Shown here in pieces: positions 73-13,176 of a DNA stretch of 23,003 bases (position 1 is its first letter; each line of letters starts with the position of its first letter). Made by a program: the position numbers and the translations under genes. The DNA lies in assembly GCA_002255045.1 (NCBI GenBank), contig NJEE01000007.1:1-23003 (forward strand), in the 5' to 3' direction. Origin of the DNA: Candidatus Bathyarchaeota archaeon ex4484_205. GTDB taxonomy: Archaea > Thermoproteota > EX4484-205. The notes below the pieces were generated by a model that was not told the DNA's origin, ran no database searches, and was given only the letters and a program-made list of their open reading frames with translations.

Positions 73-348
73 TCACAACGCCTCCATAGTAATCGCTTTA
101 ACAGGACAGACGTTTGCACATATACCACATCCTTTGCAATAATCTAAGTCTATAGTGACATTGTTTTCCTCATCTCTTGTTATTGCTGGTTCAGGGCAAT
201 AAATCCAGCAGAAGAGACATCGAATACATTTGTTGTAATCTATTTTCGGTGTGGAACTCCTCCAGCTGCCTGTTTTATATTTTAAGGAAGTTCTAGGCTC
301 CAGAATTATGCCACCCAATGGAATCTCTTTCCAGCTGGCTATACCCAA
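73..348 (-). CDS. porD: 2-oxoacid:ferredoxin oxidoreductase delta subunit (2x[4Fe-4S] ferredoxin-like)
   Basis: 91 aa with two cysteine clusters (CIRCLFCWIYCP and CKGCGICANVCP). It sits between the gamma and alpha genes. Confidence 0.85.
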   Translation of the reverse strand: MGIASWKEIPLGGIILEPRTSLKYKTGSWRSSTPKIDYNKCIRCLFCWIYCPEPAITRDEENNVTIDLDYCKGCGICANVCPVKAITMEAL

Positions 349-350
349 AT

Positions 351-917
351 TTATTTCACCTCTTCATAGCCTCTTTCAAGAGCCTTAATATTTTTCTCCA
401 ACATAGCATCTGTGAAGCGATTCCCCATCGCTTTCTTTAGCGACTCCATCTGCACCAACTCCGTTATTTTTGAAAGAGCACCCATCATTGGAGTATTATA
501 GAATGGTCTTCCAAATATCTCTTGAGCTATATGCACAGCATCAAGGACGTAAAGTCGAGTACTTTCGGCTATCCCCAGAAACTTCTTTACTTCTTTCTTC
601 TCCTTGGTGGAGTTTACTATTACACATCCATTGGGCTTCAGACCATCCACAATCATTGGGGAATTGGAGAGAGCAGGATCGATGCAGAGAATTATGTCAG
701 GTTCATAAATTTGTTGATGTAGATCTATGGGACCATCGGATACTCGTAGGAAGCCTTTGACCGGTGCACCACTCCTTTCTGGACCAAACTCTGGGAAGGC
801 TTGAACATACTTCCCCTCCAATATGAGGGCATTTGCGAGGAGCATGTTTGCAGAGACGACTCCTTGGCCGCCTCGGCCATGCCACCTCAACTCTATGAGA
901 GAGGACAAATTCGCCAC
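351..917 (-). CDS. porG: 2-oxoacid:ferredoxin oxidoreductase gamma subunit
   Basis: Contains ELRWHGRGGQGVVSANMLLA and FPEFGPERSGAP, typical of the gamma subunit. The ORF is open to a GTG at 941, but a TATA-like TTATTATATA (minus strand, 942-951) abuts that codon. The GTG at 917 or TTG at 908 is therefore a more plausible, leaderless-type start. Confidence 0.85.
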   Translation of the reverse strand: MANLSSLIELRWHGRGGQGVVSANMLLANALILEGKYVQAFPEFGPERSGAPVKGFLRVSDGPIDLHQQIYEPDIILCIDPALSNSPMIVDGLKPNGCVIVNSTKEKKEVKKFLGIAESTRLYVLDAVHIAQEIFGRPFYNTPMMGALSKITELVQMESLKKAMGNRFTDAMLEKNIKALERGYEEVK

Positions 918-941
918 CGACAATAGGAGGGTAACAATCAC

Positions 942-6902: not shown

Positions 6903-7628
6903 TCAGACATAATACTCACTCTTAAGTTTTCCATCTGTTGAGACTATCTCGGGGATTTCACCCCAAGTGACAATATAGGAGCCATGCATTATCATTATTC
7001 CCTTGACACCATATATATTCCTTCCATATTCTATTGCCTTCCTTATGAGGGAAGGAGATGGTTTTTCAGATATAGTGTTCAAGATGGAGGTTGCTGCAGC
7101 ATCTGCTATAGATGCATTTTTCCCAAACACCGTTACACCCTCAGCATTTCCAAAGCTGAGGGCATGAGAGAATCTTCCTGAACTTGTTGAGATACCCCAT
7201 AGACGCCCTTTAGTCGGAGGAATTCTAAAAGCAAACTTTCCGGAGATAGGAGTGTCACCAAGAAGGACTCCTACGAATGTTTCTCTATCTGAAATAATTG
7301 CAACTTCACCACCATTCTCTACCGCTATGCTTTTACACCCCTTTCCACGTGCATAGCATGCCACTACATCTGAGAAAGCCCCTGGAACTGCTGCTAAGAT
7401 ACCGACATTTGCCTGACGAGCGGCGAAGAAGGCGAGTTTGATAATGGAAGGGGAATTTGCTGGCAGGTGGGAAGGAGGATGAAGAGAGAGTTTTTCTATT
7501 GGATATTGCTGGAAAAAACGATCAATTAAAGATCTCTGGTATCTAACAAAGGACTCTAACTTAGAAGGAGGATTGTCTACAACGATATTAAGATGAGATT
7601 CTTTGAGCTCGAAACGTAAGCGGGGCAT
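6903..7628 (-). CDS. UPF0280 family protein (ApbE-like superfamily, COG2122)
   Basis: 241 aa. AAVPGAFSDVV, TSSGRFSHALSFGNAEGVTV and SIADAAATSI resemble UPF0280/ApbE-like motifs (from memory). Confidence 0.55.
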   Translation of the reverse strand: MPRLRFELKESHLNIVVDNPPSKLESFVRYQRSLIDRFFQQYPIEKLSLHPPSHLPANSPSIIKLAFFAARQANVGILAAVPGAFSDVVACYARGKGCKSIAVENGGEVAIISDRETFVGVLLGDTPISGKFAFRIPPTKGRLWGISTSSGRFSHALSFGNAEGVTVFGKNASIADAAATSILNTISEKPSPSLIRKAIEYGRNIYGVKGIMIMHGSYIVTWGEIPEIVSTDGKLKSEYYV

Positions 7629-7781: not shown

Positions 7782-9662
7782 ATGGCAAGTAAAGAAGTAT
7801 TACTATCTGACGATGGAACAACAGAGATCCTAATGGGGAATGAAGCCGTGGCTCGAGGAGCATTAGAAGCAGGGGTACAGTTAGTGGCTTCTTATCCTGG
7901 GACACCATCTACAGAGATAACTATCGCTCTATCTAGAGTTGCGAAGAAACTCGGAATATATGTGGAGTGGTCGATAAATGAGATGGTGGCTTTTGAAGTA
8001 GCCTATGGAGCAGCCTTAACAGGATTGCGAAGTATGTGCGGGACAAAACATTTAGGACTCAACTGGAAGCTTGATCCCTTAGTAGTATCTGCATATACAG
8101 GGGTAAATGGAAGCCTAGTGATAGCTGTGGCAGATGATACACATCCACACAGTAGTCAGAATGCGGCAGACACCAGATATCTAGCCAAGTATGCAAACGT
8201 ACCATGCATAGAGCCCACATCACCTATGGATGCAAAGGAAATTACAAAAAGAGCTTTCGAGCTCTCTGAGAAGGTTTCACTTCCTGTAATTGTCAGATTG
8301 ACACCTAGGGTTGCACATGGAAGAGGCATAGTAAAAATGGGAAAACTACCTTATCCTGAGGCCTTTAGAGAGGCAAAATTCGAGAAAGACCCTCGGAGAT
8401 ATGTTGTTATCGCATCCACTGCACGAAGAAGAAAACCTTGGTTAAATGAAAGGATAGATAAGGTTAAGGAAATTTTTTCAGAAGGCTGGAATGAAACTAT
8501 CGAGAATGGGGGGGAATTCGGGGTCATAGCTTCAGGCGTAACCTATCTTTATGCAACAGAGGCTGTAAGAAATAGCAAGCTGAAAGATATAGATCTCCTT
8601 AAACTGATAACAGTGAACCCTCTTCCAGAAAAACCTATTGTGGAATTTCTAAGAGATCATAAAAAAGTTCTCGTACTTGAGGAAAACGAGCCGATTCTAG
8701 AGAGGGAGATCAGATCGTTAGCACAAATGAAGGGATTTAATACAAGAATATATGGGAGGGATAGTGGACACATACCAAGGGCTTATGAACTTAACGGAGA
8801 TATTGTAAATGAAGCGTTACTTAATATAATGGGTATTACCAACCCAATAGTTGTACACAATCCCGGAGATGTAAATAGAAGAATACCTTATCTATGTGCA
8901 GGATGCCCACATAGGGCGAGTTATTATGCGATAAAGAGGGTGCTGAAGAAGAGAGGTGGAGGAATAGTTTTAGGGGATAGAGGATGCTATAATCAGGGAG
9001 TACATCCACCTATAAGAGGAATAGATACATGTATATGTATGGGGGCCAGCATAGGGTTAGCAAATGGGTTCTCACATGCAGGGATAAAGGAGCCTATAAT
9101 AGCAGTTATAGGAGACTCAACATTTATGCATGCAGGTATACCTCCACTTATCAATGCATTATACAATAAAGCCAAGTTTCTAGCAGTCATATTCAACAAT
9201 TCGATCACAGCTATGACGGGACATGAACCTTCTCCACTTACTGGAATTACAGCCTTGGGGGAGGAAACCAGAAAGATAGATCTTCACAGACTTTTGAAGG
9301 GAATTGGTATAGAGTATGTGAAGATTTTAAATCCATTTTACATCAAAGAAGCAGAAGAGGCGATAGAGGAAGGACTGAAATATATAGAGAAAGAGTCTAA
9401 ACCCGCGGTTGTGGTGTTTGAATATCCTTGTGCAATATTGGAGAGAAGAGAGAGACGTGCAAAGGGAATAAAGATAGAGAAACCACAAATAGATTGGAAC
9501 AAATGTGTAAATTGCAGAATTTGCATAAATCAGACTGGATGTCCAGCGTTGGAAATAGATGAGGAGACAGGGAAGCCGTACATTATTAAGGAAGAATGTA
9601 ATGCCTGTGACTTATGTGTGAAAATATGCCCAACAAAGGCTATAGGATATAGAGGTGAATAA
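7782..9662 (+). CDS. iorA: Indolepyruvate:ferredoxin oxidoreductase alpha subunit
   Basis: 626 aa. N-terminal GNEAVARGALEAGVQLVASYPGTPSTEI, a TPP-binding region (GDSTFMHAG...N), and C-terminal 2x[4Fe-4S] motifs (CVNCRICINQTGCP and CNACDLCVKICP). Confidence 0.88.
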   Translation: MASKEVLLSDDGTTEILMGNEAVARGALEAGVQLVASYPGTPSTEITIALSRVAKKLGIYVEWSINEMVAFEVAYGAALTGLRSMCGTKHLGLNWKLDPLVVSAYTGVNGSLVIAVADDTHPHSSQNAADTRYLAKYANVPCIEPTSPMDAKEITKRAFELSEKVSLPVIVRLTPRVAHGRGIVKMGKLPYPEAFREAKFEKDPRRYVVIASTARRRKPWLNERIDKVKEIFSEGWNETIENGGEFGVIASGVTYLYATEAVRNSKLKDIDLLKLITVNPLPEKPIVEFLRDHKKVLVLEENEPILEREIRSLAQMKGFNTRIYGRDSGHIPRAYELNGDIVNEALLNIMGITNPIVVHNPGDVNRRIPYLCAGCPHRASYYAIKRVLKKRGGGIVLGDRGCYNQGVHPPIRGIDTCICMGASIGLANGFSHAGIKEPIIAVIGDSTFMHAGIPPLINALYNKAKFLAVIFNNSITAMTGHEPSPLTGITALGEETRKIDLHRLLKGIGIEYVKILNPFYIKEAEEAIEEGLKYIEKESKPAVVVFEYPCAILERRERRAKGIKIEKPQIDWNKCVNCRICINQTGCPALEIDEETGKPYIIKEECNACDLCVKICPTKAIGYRGE

Positions 9663-9663
9663 G

Positions 9664-10299
9664 ATGGAGAAGTTCTCTCGACGGCTTATATTTATTGGTG
9701 TGGGAGGTCAGGGAGTAGTTTTAGTTACTCGCATAATCTCACAATCGGTAGTTGAAGAGGGATACAGAGTGGTTATTGGAGAAACACATGGACAGGCGAT
9801 AAGAGGGGGAACTACACTTACACATATGCTTTATGGCGAAGAGGAGATATACAGCCCACTTATAATGAAGGGAACTGCAGATGCAATTATTGGGTTTGAG
9901 CCCATGGAGACGGTTAGGGCATTACCATATTTGAGAAGAGGAGGAGTAGTTGTATATAATAGGCATCCGGTGCATCCAGTAACTGTGAAAATAGGAGAGG
10001 AGGAATATCCTACTCCAGGAGAACTTTTCTCTAAAATTAATTCAATAGACGGAAGAGTATATGGGTTAGATGCTACTAAGATTGCAGAGGAGTTAGGAAG
10101 CAGAAGAGTAGCTAATATTTTACTTCTAGGGGTAATGACAGGAGCGTTCGATTTAGGTATACAGCTGGATACTATTAGAGAATCAATAATGAGGAATGTT
10201 CCTCCAGGCACAGTGGAGGCGAATCTTAAAGCCTTCAACAAAGGGATAGAATACGCGAAAAGAGAACAGCCATCAAGAAAACATAAAAACTTTTTATGA
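9664..10299 (+). CDS. iorB: Indolepyruvate:ferredoxin oxidoreductase beta subunit
   Basis: IGVGGQGVVLVTRIISQ...IGETHGQAIRGG is a gamma-like domain. It follows iorA directly. The start is ATG 9664, or GTG 9655 overlapping the iorA stop. Confidence 0.85.
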   Translation: MEKFSRRLIFIGVGGQGVVLVTRIISQSVVEEGYRVVIGETHGQAIRGGTTLTHMLYGEEEIYSPLIMKGTADAIIGFEPMETVRALPYLRRGGVVVYNRHPVHPVTVKIGEEEYPTPGELFSKINSIDGRVYGLDATKIAEELGSRRVANILLLGVMTGAFDLGIQLDTIRESIMRNVPPGTVEANLKAFNKGIEYAKREQPSRKHKNFL

Positions 10300-10315: not shown

Positions 10316-12262
10316 ATGAGGAAAGCAAGCAGCGAGATGGCACTCCTAGTGGTTTCTGCCCTATCGGATCCACTTAGGTTGAGGGTTATCAGATTACTAC
10401 AGGAGAAAAAACTGAGATATAAAGAGTTAATGAAGGAAGTGGGATTACAGCAGGATAAATCTGGGAAATTCAATTATCATATAGAGAAACTTAAGGAAGG
10501 AGGATTAATTGTGAAGGAGGAAAAGACAGGGAAGTATAAGCTTACTGACCTAGGAGCGAAAGCCCTTGAGGCTTATAGAGAGATAGAAAGAGCAACCTTC
10601 ATGAAAAGTGAAGGATTGAAGGTTAGAAAATCAGAATTAAGAATTGAAAGTTTTGATAAAAATAAAATTAGAGATTATTTGGTTACAGAGGCGGAGATGG
10701 ATGGAGAACTAGCTATGGATATAGCAGATGAAGTTGAGGAAAGACTTTTGTCAGTTCCAGTGAGGTATCTTACAGCGCCCCTAATTCGCGAATTTCTAAA
10801 TGCAATACTAATCGAGAGAGGACTAGAGAGATACAGGCATAAACTTACAAGATTGGGGCTCCCAGTCTATGACGTAAGCAAGAGACTGGAAGAGACAGGC
10901 CATAATCTTGAGGTTAAGACGGAGTCAGGAAATTCTGTCCTAGAGCAATATGTGCTTCTTTCAGTACTACCTAGGGAGGGAGCTGCAGATGCCCATCTAG
11001 CAGGATATATACATTTGAATAGATGTTGGGAATGGTGCATAAGACCTGAAGAAATAGTGCATTATGCCCCACAACTCCTCTCAATGGAACATATTCCGGA
11101 GAAGTGGTTAGTGAACAGTTCCTTTAAGGGAGATGGAATAGGGTGGAATATAAGCCTTCTCTCCGCCGCATTGCAACGAGCGGCATATGAAGTTTCAGTA
11201 GGCCAACTCATAACAGGCTTTAATGAAATTCTTCCGAATGAAATGTCTTCAAAGGACATGGAAGAGCTTAGAAGAGGGCTTTGGAGTCTAATAGTAGGAG
11301 AGAACTCCATTGTACTGAGCATCGGAGAAATCGGAGATAAAAGGACGGAAAATATACTACGTGTACTTAACGAATTAAGAAACAAAATTTTCCTCTCTAA
11401 TGTTAAAATTAACATACATATAAAGGAGGGAGATAATATTGAATCTTTAATTGAGTTAGGTAAAAAAATAGGAAATATTAGAATAATAATGGAGAGAACT
11501 GGTGAAATATCTTGGGGAGGCAGAATTTTAACTCCAAAAAGCGGAGGCTCCTTCACTCTCGATGTAGCAAGAGGAGGAATAGGCGGTAGTGTAGCTATAA
11601 ACCTAGAGAAGATCTTTGAATATGCGGAGAGGAGAGAAACCAGATTCTATCCACGATTTATGAAATTTATAAGAATGGGGGCGCAGGCATTGAAAATCAA
11701 ATCAAAATGCGATAGAGACAATGTCTTGAAAAGAAAACTACCTTTTCTCTCTATGCTCGTAAAGGGAGAGCCTTACCTTCGAATTGAGAATATAAAGTAT
11801 GAAATCCAAATGATTGGATTTCGGAGAATTATGAGTGAGAGTAGGATAGATGTGAAGAAGGTGATCAACTCAGTTAAGGATGGAATAAAAAGATGGCGAA
11901 TGAAGGGGATAGAAATTATCACTTCAAATAAGACATTAGATGAACCCATACATAGATTTAGGAGAATGGAAGAAAGATTCAAGGAATGGGATACGTTTTA
12001 TACTGGAACAGGCGATATACCTCACCTAAGGGAGATATTAGAAGCACATAAGGGAGATGTCCTAGTATATACTAATGCCAGAAATATGGACAAAAATAAA
12101 ATATACGAACTTTTTGATGAGGGAGTGAAGTACATAGAAATGGGTGTAAAAAGAAAGATATGTACAAACTGTGGAGAAATAATGGAGGCGAGTGAAGTGA
12201 TTTGCCCCAACTGTAAAACAAAAACCACATTTTATGCTGGAAGAAAAAACAGATTTTTTTAA
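10316..12262 (+). CDS. Fusion protein with an ArsR-like winged HTH, an ATP-cone, a class III ribonucleotide reductase (NrdD)-like core, and a C-terminal zinc ribbon. It is probably non-catalytic.
   Basis: - wHTH: LSDPLRLRVIRLLQEKKLRYKELMKEV...FNYHIEKLKEGGLI.
- ATP-cone: LKVRKSELRIESFDKNKIRDYL...LTAPLIREFLNAILIERGL.
- NrdD-like blocks: AHLAGYIHLN (compare T4 NrdD AHESGIIHVHD) and WGGRILTP...GGSVAINLEKIF (compare MGCRSFLS...GVVTLNLPRIA).
- Zinc ribbon: CTNCGE...CPNC.
- The T4 sequence is recalled from memory. Confidence 0.7.
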   Translation: MRKASSEMALLVVSALSDPLRLRVIRLLQEKKLRYKELMKEVGLQQDKSGKFNYHIEKLKEGGLIVKEEKTGKYKLTDLGAKALEAYREIERATFMKSEGLKVRKSELRIESFDKNKIRDYLVTEAEMDGELAMDIADEVEERLLSVPVRYLTAPLIREFLNAILIERGLERYRHKLTRLGLPVYDVSKRLEETGHNLEVKTESGNSVLEQYVLLSVLPREGAADAHLAGYIHLNRCWEWCIRPEEIVHYAPQLLSMEHIPEKWLVNSSFKGDGIGWNISLLSAALQRAAYEVSVGQLITGFNEILPNEMSSKDMEELRRGLWSLIVGENSIVLSIGEIGDKRTENILRVLNELRNKIFLSNVKINIHIKEGDNIESLIELGKKIGNIRIIMERTGEISWGGRILTPKSGGSFTLDVARGGIGGSVAINLEKIFEYAERRETRFYPRFMKFIRMGAQALKIKSKCDRDNVLKRKLPFLSMLVKGEPYLRIENIKYEIQMIGFRRIMSESRIDVKKVINSVKDGIKRWRMKGIEIITSNKTLDEPIHRFRRMEERFKEWDTFYTGTGDIPHLREILEAHKGDVLVYTNARNMDKNKIYELFDEGVKYIEMGVKRKICTNCGEIMEASEVICPNCKTKTTFYAGRKNRFF

Positions 12263-13176
12263 AGAGCTCGAAGAATAGAGATGAGTATCGCCATTCTGAC
12301 AGGAACACCAAAGGAAGCTTGCTGAAAATACTTTGCCTGAGGAAGGGAGTCAATTGAAGGAGGAAGCTCCCATGTTCTAGGTAAAGGAGCCAGAATTAAT
12401 AGATCTTCTTTACACTTTTTTAGAATTTCCGGTGAAATAGAATAAGAACTTATGTATTTTTCATAATTCTCTTTAAATCTCTCTTTTTGTAGTCTAACAA
12501 TATAAAGTACATCAAGTTCTGAAATTATACTTCTAATATCAGATATCTCTTCCAAAACAATTTCAGATTCAATACTTTTCCTGAATGGTTCATCTAGTTC
12601 TAGGCCTTTAGGCGATATTAGTTTAAGCTTCACATTATCAAATTTAGTGAGTAGCATAATCAGTGAATGAACCGCCCTACTGTGTTTCAAGTCACCCATT
12701 ATTCCAAAGGTCAAACCATCAGGATTCCCTCTAAATTTATACACGGTATAAATATCGATCAGACTCTGTGTAGGGTGTTCCACACTTCCCGAACCTGCGT
12801 TTATAACGGGCACACCAGCATATCGAATAGCTTTCCGAATAGTCTTTGGATCTTTATGCCTTAAAATCAAGATATCACAGTAATTACCTAGAATTCTTAA
12901 GGTATCCTCCATACTTTCACCCTTGGATATAGAGAGAGTAGAGGGGTCATGGACAACAAGAGGGTAAGCACCGATTTTATGAGCAGCTACTTCAAAGCTC
13001 AGTCTGGTGCGTGTACTTGGTTCAAAAAATAGCAATCCGATCACACGTCCCAATCCTATTTTTTCATACTTTCCTTTTATACAATTATCCACCAATTTGA
13101 ACAACTTTAGAACATCCGTCCTATCCAAGTCGGAGATGGAAGTAAGACCCCCAGACCAGTCGTGGGTCATGACCAT
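12259..13176 (-). CDS. pyrB: Aspartate carbamoyltransferase catalytic subunit
   Basis: 305 aa with FFEPSTRTRLSFE, HPTQSLID, GDLKHSRAVHS and LAPLPR, which are ATCase motifs. Confidence 0.9.
   Translation of the reverse strand: MVMTHDWSGGLTSISDLDRTDVLKLFKLVDNCIKGKYEKIGLGRVIGLLFFEPSTRTRLSFEVAAHKIGAYPLVVHDPSTLSISKGESMEDTLRILGNYCDILILRHKDPKTIRKAIRYAGVPVINAGSGSVEHPTQSLIDIYTVYKFRGNPDGLTFGIMGDLKHSRAVHSLIMLLTKFDNVKLKLISPKGLELDEPFRKSIESEIVLEEISDIRSIISELDVLYIVRLQKERFKENYEKYISSYSISPEILKKCKEDLLILAPLPRTWELPPSIDSLPQAKYFQQASFGVPVRMAILISILRAL

Follow-up and report, generated by a model that had tools for sequence, protein, structure and literature searches.

Does a gene that resembles the catalytic subunit of class III ribonucleotide reductase (RNR) and begins with a DNA-binding domain still encode an enzyme and, if not, what might its product do? 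The question is raised by a 648-aa open reading frame (ORF) at positions 10316–12262 on the forward strand of a 23,003-nucleotide stretch of Candidatus Bathyarchaeota archaeon ex4484_205 (contig NJEE01000007.1, assembly GCA_002255045.1); the whole stretch is called the window below. The coordinates of the ORF in the first-pass annotation of the window were exact, and its translation is 100% identical to the hypothetical protein B6U74_01340 of this archaeon. That annotation described it as a protein similar to the catalytic subunit NrdD that had gained a winged helix-turn-helix (wHTH) domain and lost its catalytic residues. Both features are real, but they are not events in B6U74_01340: they are ancient and common to a whole monophyletic family. 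B6U74_01340 is a pseudoenzyme and a paralogue of the archaeal class III RNR catalytic subunit, and its family occurs in hundreds of Thermoproteota genomes. On balance, we favour the view that this dead NrdD paralogue, with its wHTH and ATP-cone, would act as a nucleotide-sensing DNA-binding regulator controlling nucleotide-metabolism genes.

Transcriptional control of RNR and of the supply of deoxyribonucleoside triphosphates (dNTPs) is largely unknown in archaea, and the RNR regulator NrdR is essentially bacterial. A widespread and strongly conserved protein combining a wHTH, an ATP-cone and a dead NrdD is a testable candidate for an RNR regulator in a major uncultured archaeal class. A full-text literature search found no description of this architecture, in line with the earlier statement that no characterized member was known.

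Domain architecture and loss of the active site

The four parts recognized from the translation alone, namely a wHTH, an ATP-cone, a class III RNR-like core and a zinc ribbon, were all recovered by Pfam searches, by comparison of a family profile with PDB structures, and by AlphaFold2 modelling followed by Foldseek. The ArsR/SmtB-type wHTH occupies residues 8–95 (10337–10600, forward strand), as delimited by DUF7347, HTH_20, the family profile and the AlphaFold2 model. An N-terminus that did not score as a wHTH had been set beforehand as a possible refutation; in fact, DUF7347 matched residues 14–86 with 41.5 bits (E 1.6e-10; gathering cut-off 27.6) and HTH_20 reached 27.9 bits (cut-off 27). 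The model shows the secondary structure a1-a2-a3-aR-b-b-a5, with predicted helices at residues 2–16, 19–30, 35–41 and 46–61, strands at 65–67 and 74–76, and a last helix at 78–99. The predicted recognition helix, DKSGKFNYHIEKLK, spans residues 47–60 (10454–10495, forward strand), and its residues G50, F52, Y54 and H55 are invariant across the family.

The ATP-cone follows at residues 100–175 (10613–10840, forward strand), where Pfam PF03477 matched residues 102–173 with 28.0 bits (cut-off 25.8). Its signature V103-R104-x-S106...F113...I118 is common to the ATP-cones of neighbouring catalytic archaeal NrdDs. In the next segment (10841–10960, forward strand) catalytic NrdDs have a conserved NxN substrate flap, which the alignment shows to be missing here. 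The NrdD-type alpha/beta barrel, supported by Foldseek, by the profile comparison with PDB and by alignment, comprises residues 216–605 (10961–12130, forward strand) and is shortened by internal deletions; about 33 residues are missing in the alignment near residue 336. The protein ends with a CxxC...CxxC zinc ribbon formed by C616, C619, C630 and C633 (12149–12235, forward strand). All four Cys are invariant in a 48-sequence alignment of the family (A1) and are present in 118–119 of 120 family members.

Curated NrdD models stayed below their cut-offs. Pfam NRDD matched only the zinc-ribbon end (residues 595–637) with 25.6 bits, just under its cut-off of 26.2, and the NCBIfam equivalog model TIGR02487 for NrdD scored 20.9 bits against a cut-off of 326.35. 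The profile of 48 family members, on the contrary, matched the solved NrdDs of P. copri (8p23, E 5e-33), S. thermophilus (9d3x, 1e-30), T. maritima (3e-22) and T4 (4e-20), as well as ArsR/HlyU wHTH structures (E 3.5e-4 to 9e-3). The AlphaFold2 model had a mean predicted local distance difference test (pLDDT) score of 81.9, with values below 50 at residues 643–648, and its top 36 Foldseek matches in PDB were all class III RNRs (NrdD; E 8e-17 to 4e-10). Its fold and descent place B6U74_01340 in the NrdD superfamily.

Catalytic residues were counted in an alignment of 120 family members, 61 catalytic archaeal NrdDs (among them the type found beside family members) and E. coli NrdD, and in a second independent alignment. 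The T4 motifs given in the first-pass annotation were right, since 1h78 reads VSPMGC(290)RSFLS...GRNN(311)LGVVTLNLPRIA. The replacement of the thiyl-radical Cys by Gly, which it had proposed, was also borne out: the finger-loop remnant ISWGGRILTP (11507–11536, forward strand) has Gly at this position (T4 C290, E. coli C384), and no Cys is found near ISWGGRI at residues 398–404. All 61 catalytic NrdDs have Cys here, whereas the family has C in 27, S in 25, T in 22, G in 8 and L in 7 members, and because the column is so variable, the position is unconstrained in the family. The Cys neighbouring the thiyl Cys is likewise present in 61 of 61 catalytic NrdDs and is replaced by Gly in 109 family members and in B6U74_01340.

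The rest of the active site is gone as well. At the position of the lower active-site Cys (E. coli C175, T4 C79), which is Cys in all 61 catalytic NrdDs and E, S or D in 86, 11 and 10 of the 120 family members, respectively, B6U74_01340 carries the family substitution Glu246 (11039–11059, forward strand). The triphosphate-binding motif HxHD has degenerated to HxN within IHLNR (H233-L-N-R; 11009–11023, forward strand). Its second His is invariant in the 61 catalytic enzymes and corresponds to Asn235 here; for the 120 family members the residues given are N in 63, S in 19, C in 13, K in 10 and D in 6, with no His among them. The last Asn of the NxN flap (E. coli N119) is present in 60 of 61 catalytic NrdDs, and is replaced in the family by G (70 members), S (21) or E (13) and in B6U74_01340 by Gly195. 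Functions are assigned to HxHD, the NxN flap, Cys416 and Gly711 according to a study of P. copri NrdD (PMC11226230). The glycyl-radical Gly is conserved in 26 of 26 catalytic NrdDs that carry the C-terminal radical domain. Family members have A (65), S (17) or T (8) at this position, most of them within an R-V-S-A-K-Y motif, and in B6U74_01340 the radical domain is missing entirely: as had been claimed, the chain stops 15 residues after C633 without an RxxG[YF] motif, ending with GRKNRFF and a stop codon, at which there is a T-run (12239–12262, forward strand).

Structural motifs, namely NLPR, the YYT block and the four zinc Cys, are retained by most of the family. NLPR is invariant in catalytic NrdDs, and its P and R are each conserved in 118 of 120 family members; in B6U74_01340 the corresponding segment ARGGIGGSVAINLEKIF (11567–11617, forward strand, located by alignment) keeps R419, which is invariant in alignment A1, and has NLEK in place of NLPR.

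Two of the earlier arguments for the loss of catalysis did not survive intact. The absence of the Asn equivalent to T4 N311 is uninformative and was dropped, since the closest catalytic archaeal NrdDs also have Ala or Ser there. The lack of an adjacent gene for the activase NrdG was confirmed, with a radical S-adenosylmethionine (SAM) domain found in none of the ORFs of the window; this absence is, however, the common state in the family and not a peculiarity of the locus. It is close to certain that B6U74_01340 cannot be a working class III RNR, and the barrel cannot perform glycyl-radical ribonucleotide reduction. Since it lacks the defining catalytic features and falls below the curated cut-offs, B6U74_01340 should not be classified as an RNR. 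Reconstructions of bathyarchaeial metabolism would be wrong if they counted family members named "anaerobic ribonucleoside-triphosphate reductase" as a working class III RNR.

The family, its phylogeny and the selection acting on it

The first search yielded 799 clusters at 90% identity (E < 1e-3), nearly all of them with 710–780 aa and precomputed wHTH, ATP-cone and NRDD domains. A profile of the wHTH, ATP-cone and linker alone retrieved 207 clusters at 50% identity with E <= 1e-30. With one genome taken per GTDB species, a relative was encoded in 582 of the 600 pattern-matched stretches listed, that is, in at least some hundreds of genes. The best 80 loci of at least 582 were almost all from Bathyarchaeia, with a few from Brockarchaeota, Hecatellales, Culexmicrobium and bins labelled 'Nitrososphaerota'. 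In databases, family members are named "hypothetical protein", "helix-turn-helix domain-containing protein" or "anaerobic ribonucleoside-triphosphate reductase". Stand-alone proteins composed of only the wHTH and ATP-cone were looked for and rejected, since the short matches ended inside the barrel or in tails that look out of frame, and resemble fragments. A search of a phage collection with tblastn found no relatives of B6U74_01340.

In a neighbour-joining tree, all 120 sampled members were monophyletic with no catalytic NrdD inside the clade. The wHTH was present in all sampled members, and the combination of a wHTH with a full catalytic set occurred in none of the 120, 146 and 83 sequences sampled. 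The ATP-cone and linker of the family are about 40% identical to those of catalytic NrdDs of the same lineage and the barrel about 23%, which fits an origin by duplication of a same-lineage catalytic NrdD. The mean distance was 0.90 within the family versus 0.42 among catalytic NrdDs, so the family barrel has evolved about twice as fast and is relaxed relative to that of the enzymes.

Three members, P0299 (764 aa), P0017 (746 aa) and P0261 (739 aa), carry the RxxGY-like strings RRLGY, RERTGY and RAEGY, respectively, after the zinc ribbon; P0299 and P0261 have no finger-loop Cys either. Such strings may be left over from the glycyl loop and could be useful for dating the loss of catalysis.

B6U74_01340 matched family members with E values from 3e-101 to 1e-62 and was placed inside the family clade as sister to P0002–P0010 (Brockarchaeota-like), with which it shares only 33%–38% identity. 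It is the fastest-evolving and most reduced sampled member. Its identity to the family is 56% in the ATP-cone and 22%–24% in the barrel, and it is about 100 residues below the typical length as a result of the internal barrel deletions and the missing C-terminal tail. Similarly short members are found in other lineages, such as those of loci L015 (648 aa) and L076 (637 aa), together with many clusters of 580–670 aa.

Selection was assessed from the ratio of nonsynonymous to synonymous substitution rates (dN/dS) in 20 independent pairs at 70%–92% protein identity, of which 12–16 were usable per domain; the synonymous distances were near saturation, and the values are rough. The ratio was about 0.04 for the wHTH, about 0.05 for the ATP-cone, and about 0.11–0.12 for the linker, barrel and zinc ribbon. 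All domains are under purifying selection, and the wHTH and ATP-cone are the most constrained. The ATP-cone is the most conserved domain, with a mean pairwise identity of 66%, and the invariant residues of alignment A1 are concentrated in residues 21–184. Such low dN/dS values indicate that the family protein is functional and that its sensor and DNA-binding modules matter most.

Genomic context and the proposed regulatory role

Downstream context was scored in the 68 loci where 1.5 kb or more of downstream sequence was available. Among the neighbours of the family gene only pyrB is conserved; it directly follows the family gene in convergent orientation in 39 of 68 loci, usually with pyrI on its far side. 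The gap between the 3' ends has a median of 8 nt (range –4 to 238), and the two mRNAs must overlap at their 3' ends or have a terminator in common. In 11 loci a catalytic nrdD lies directly downstream of the family gene on the same strand, and seven of these then have the convergent pyrB; a glutaredoxin/thioredoxin-like gene accompanies nrdD in several of the 11, and a gene for a radical-SAM activase was detected in three (L003, L005 and L010). One more locus has pyrB further downstream with other genes between, and the remaining 17 have neither pyrB nor nrdD. The simplest history is an ancestral cluster of the dead paralogue, nrdD, sometimes a thioredoxin gene, nrdG and convergent pyrB; most lineages would then have lost or relocated the catalytic operon and kept the paralogue. 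A specific loss of nrdDG at the B6U74_01340 locus was rejected, because most loci have the family gene followed by convergent pyrB. No neighbour is conserved on the upstream side, except for a divergent tRNA-Pro(CGG) gene in 21 of 76 loci. It lies about 100 nt upstream of the family promoter, for example at L085 9784–9860, L034 9784–9861, L019 565–642 and L073 9784–9859, and in 17 more loci.

The catalytic NrdD encoded at some of these loci is split within its zinc ribbon, as in L003 (11391–13367 and 13316–13543) and L006 (8430–10355 and 10355–10528), and also in L004 and L005. The first ORF, of 641–658 aa, ends with ...CLDCGRRSQMEV(T/K)KQ and a stop, and the second, of 57–75 aa, reads CPxCGS...RVTGFF and contains the glycyl-radical loop. 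The split is kept between unrelated assemblies, and many NrdD clusters of 640–650 aa from Hydrothermarchaeales, Methanobacteriota and Pyrohabitans suggest that it is widespread.

Family genes have their own promoters with B recognition element (BRE)/TATA sequences (TTTAAAC). Six intergenic regions between the family gene and a full-length nrdD have three conserved blocks in common, which lie within about 70 nt; elsewhere these regions have diverged. In order, the blocks are GTGT[TC]AATT, (G)TACA[AG][AG]ATTTTATAC, which contains the near-palindrome GTAYAAAATTTTRTAC, and TCTAAAAATTTAAGTA; the nrdD promoter fragment carries GTGTTAATTT...GTACAAAATTTTATAC...TCTAAAAATTTAAGTA. In alignment A3, GTGTYAATT, the near-palindromic TACARRATTTTATAC and TCTAAAAATTTAAGTA were located at L007 10254–10480, L070 12248–12363, L083 2640–2791, L040 4704–4942, L043 3202–3456 and L057 12065–12298. 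The outer blocks are also visible in L030 and L037, which lie on truncated contigs. Allowing up to two mismatches, GTAYAAAATTTTRTAC has 13 matches in the 1.16 Mb of loci, seven of which fall within the six nrdD regions, and it could be an operator.

In the proposed mechanism, dimerization of the NrdD-type barrel would bring two wHTH domains together on DNA; nucleotide at the ATP-cone, either ATP or dATP, would change this geometry or the oligomeric state, whereby the expression of nucleotide-metabolism genes would be coupled to the dNTP/ATP state. Since the HxHD motif and the flap are gone, sensing is expected at the ATP-cone and not at the old active site. The stretch in which the allosteric specificity site would be located aligns poorly and has been partly deleted in B6U74_01340. 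The ancestral target would likely be the catalytic nrdD operon, which is still found directly downstream in some genomes. ATP-cone switching has precedents in NrdR (PMC9110341) and in P. copri NrdD, which alternates between a dimer and a tetramer (PMC11226230). For our family, the whole chain from nucleotide sensing and DNA binding to the genes targeted is inferred. If the proposal is true, the family would be a clean case of an enzyme turned regulator that kept its own allosteric domain. More tentatively, and with somewhat less than an even chance in our estimate, the family may represent an unrecognized master dNTP/ATP sensor of Bathyarchaeia and related Thermoproteota, which would control RNR and possibly pyrimidine (pyrBI) genes and would be an independent archaeal counterpart of NrdR, derived from a duplicated and disabled copy of the enzyme it regulates.

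A number of observations weigh against a regulatory role. No RNR gene is adjacent to the family gene in most loci, including the 39 of 68 with pyrB, or at the B6U74_01340 locus itself, and the convergent arrangement with pyrB does not suggest a shared promoter. Among the 36 non-redundant upstream regions of family genes (of 76), no palindromic dyad rose above shuffled controls, and a seed-based motif search of the same 76 (36 non-redundant) regions returned only the generic BRE/TATA sequence (TTTAAAC) and the divergent tRNA-Pro gene. The near-palindrome GTAYAAAATTTTRTAC has no match in the window with up to three mismatches and could represent only BRE/TATA promoter elements. The textbook signature of an ATP-cone is V-x-K-R-D-G, from which V-R-x-S differs, and nucleotide binding is presumed from the conservation of the domain. 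Finally, B6U74_01340 has the longest branch in the family (root-to-tip distance 1.25 versus a median of 0.56) and lacks the NLPR motif, the YYT block and the RVSAKY tail that other members keep, which means that its function may have drifted.

These last features would also be expected if B6U74_01340 were a decaying relic, that is, if the family were functional and this copy were drifting after losing its function and the nrdD operon. The long branch, the low barrel identity of 22%–24% to the family, the internal deletions and the loss of the NLPR, YYT and C-terminal tail motifs agree with such decay. However, the reading frame runs unbroken through all 648 codons without a frameshift, the family-invariant residues of the N-terminal part are kept along with an ATP-cone 56% identical to the family, the model is confident (mean pLDDT 81.9), and the arrangement with convergent pyrB is the common one. 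Comparably short members elsewhere (L015, L076 and the 580–670-aa clusters) point to repeated streamlining rather than decay, and we consider a relic unlikely. The opposite possibility, a normal catalytic NrdD in which the alignment put the key residues in the wrong place, is suggested only by the database name "anaerobic ribonucleoside-triphosphate reductase" borne by many members, and it is effectively refuted by the sequence. The worry about misplacement, raised with the original proposal, is excluded by the agreement between the L-INS-i alignments with E. coli NrdD and with the 61 catalytic archaeal NrdDs and the hidden Markov model comparison with PDB; in addition, only 15 residues follow the zinc ribbon, and the TIGR02487 score is 20.9 bits where 326 would be required.

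The dead barrel could instead be a non-catalytic partner or scaffold that heterodimerizes with, or modulates, the catalytic NrdD or another nucleotide enzyme, with the wHTH serving for protein or non-specific nucleic-acid contacts. NrdD is an obligate dimer whose fold the paralogue keeps, a catalytic nrdD adjoins the family gene in 11 of 68 loci, and the operator search on the family upstream regions was negative. Most loci, on the other hand, have no adjacent catalytic nrdD, the barrel is only about 23% identical to that of catalytic NrdD, and the recognition helix is the most invariant stretch, which is typical of a conserved nucleic-acid target; the probability of a partner or scaffold role is put low. 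An altered enzyme, performing non-radical nucleotide chemistry or using a radical supplied in trans by a separate glycyl-radical polypeptide, appears very improbable. It would account for the purifying selection on the barrel (dN/dS about 0.11) and for the Cys that the sister clade P0002–P0010 conserves one position off the thiyl site (TWNC[GA]RI), and the loci of this clade (L003 for P0002; L005 and L006 for P0009) do encode a stand-alone glycyl-radical mini-ORF beside the split catalytic NrdD. Nevertheless, the finger loop of B6U74_01340 contains no Cys, its HxHD motif, NxN flap and lower Cys are gone, the thiyl position is unconstrained across the family, and the window lacks an activase gene. 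A nucleotide-sensing DNA-binding regulator remains the reading that we prefer.

At the locus itself, B6U74_01340 is directly preceded by iorA (7782–9662) and iorB (9655–10299), both on the forward strand, and followed by the convergent pyrB for aspartate carbamoyltransferase (12259–13176, reverse strand; Pfam OTCace_N/OTCace), the two stop codons overlapping at 12259–12262. Reading of the sequence revealed a TATA-like element, CTTTTTATGA (10290–10299, forward strand), within the end of iorB and 17–26 nt before the ATG of B6U74_01340; it may be a promoter of its own giving a leaderless or short-leader mRNA. The neighbours in the window are archaeal housekeeping genes: rpl3, rpl4, rpl23, rpl2, rps19, an aminotransferase gene, iorA and iorB precede B6U74_01340 and pyrB, beyond which are found genes for DUF1512, M24 peptidase, NMNAT, a class I (Trp/Tyr-type) aminoacyl-tRNA synthetase, the alpha and beta subunits of phenylalanyl-tRNA synthetase, and Toprim proteins. 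The catalytic nrdD operon is not at this locus, and no tRNA genes were found in the window, hence no divergent tRNA-Pro. The ex4484_205 label was absent among the 120 close relatives listed for a query with the neighbouring type of catalytic NrdD.

The window contains two gene sets resembling indolepyruvate/2-oxoacid:ferredoxin oxidoreductases, at 73–941 (reverse strand) and 7782–10299 (forward strand). The first comprises a POR-gamma-like ORF (351–941, reverse strand) and, immediately before this at the edge of the window, an iorA-like ORF; the second is the iorA/iorB pair adjoining B6U74_01340, and the family gene of L003 likewise has iorAB directly upstream. A 241-aa ORF at 6903–7628 (reverse strand) had no Pfam match even at E 0.01. 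Two divergent Toprim ORFs are located at 20821–21264 (reverse strand; 147 aa, Toprim only) and 21576–22535 (forward strand; 319 aa, DnaG-like).

Comparison with known systems

The closest known relatives are the catalytic NrdDs encoded beside family members (e.g., L003 11391–13367 and L007 10821–13061), which have the same order of ATP-cone, linker, 10-stranded barrel and four-Cys zinc ribbon. Compared with them, B6U74_01340 has an extra N-terminal wHTH, lacks the thiyl Cys, the lower Cys, the glycyl-radical loop and the NxN flap, and carries a degenerate HxHD motif. RNR homologues retained without catalysis are also found in betaherpesviruses: UL45/M45 are homologues of the RNR large subunit that lack catalytic residues and are kept for a non-enzymatic role. 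However, they are class I R1 homologues involved in the control of host cell death, have no DNA-binding domain, and are unrelated to the dead-NrdD family in lineage and role.

With ArsR/SmtB repressors (HlyU, NolR, ArsR), B6U74_01340 shares the a1-a2-a3-aR-wing-a5 organization of its N-terminal 95 residues and the matches to HTH_20 and DUF7347. Unlike these stand-alone dimers of about 100 residues, its wHTH is fused to a sensor and scaffold of about 550 residues, and it scores 29 bits against the NCBIfam metalloregulator cut-off of 55.

The nearest functional parallel is bacterial NrdR, a protein composed of a zinc ribbon and an ATP-cone that represses RNR operons. In both cases a DNA-binding module is fused to an ATP-cone, reading of ATP/dATP would be expected, and a link to RNR exists, which for our family is seen in a subset of genomes. 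The differences are equally clear. No NrdR model was among the NCBIfam or Pfam results for B6U74_01340, and no pair resembling NrdR boxes was identified. NrdR has about 150 aa, an N-terminal zinc ribbon and paired NrdR boxes, while the family uses an ArsR-type wHTH, has in addition a dead NrdD barrel some 450 residues long, and belongs to an archaeal lineage, Bathyarchaeia and relatives. By this comparison, B6U74_01340 would be at most a functional analogue of NrdR and not a member of that family.

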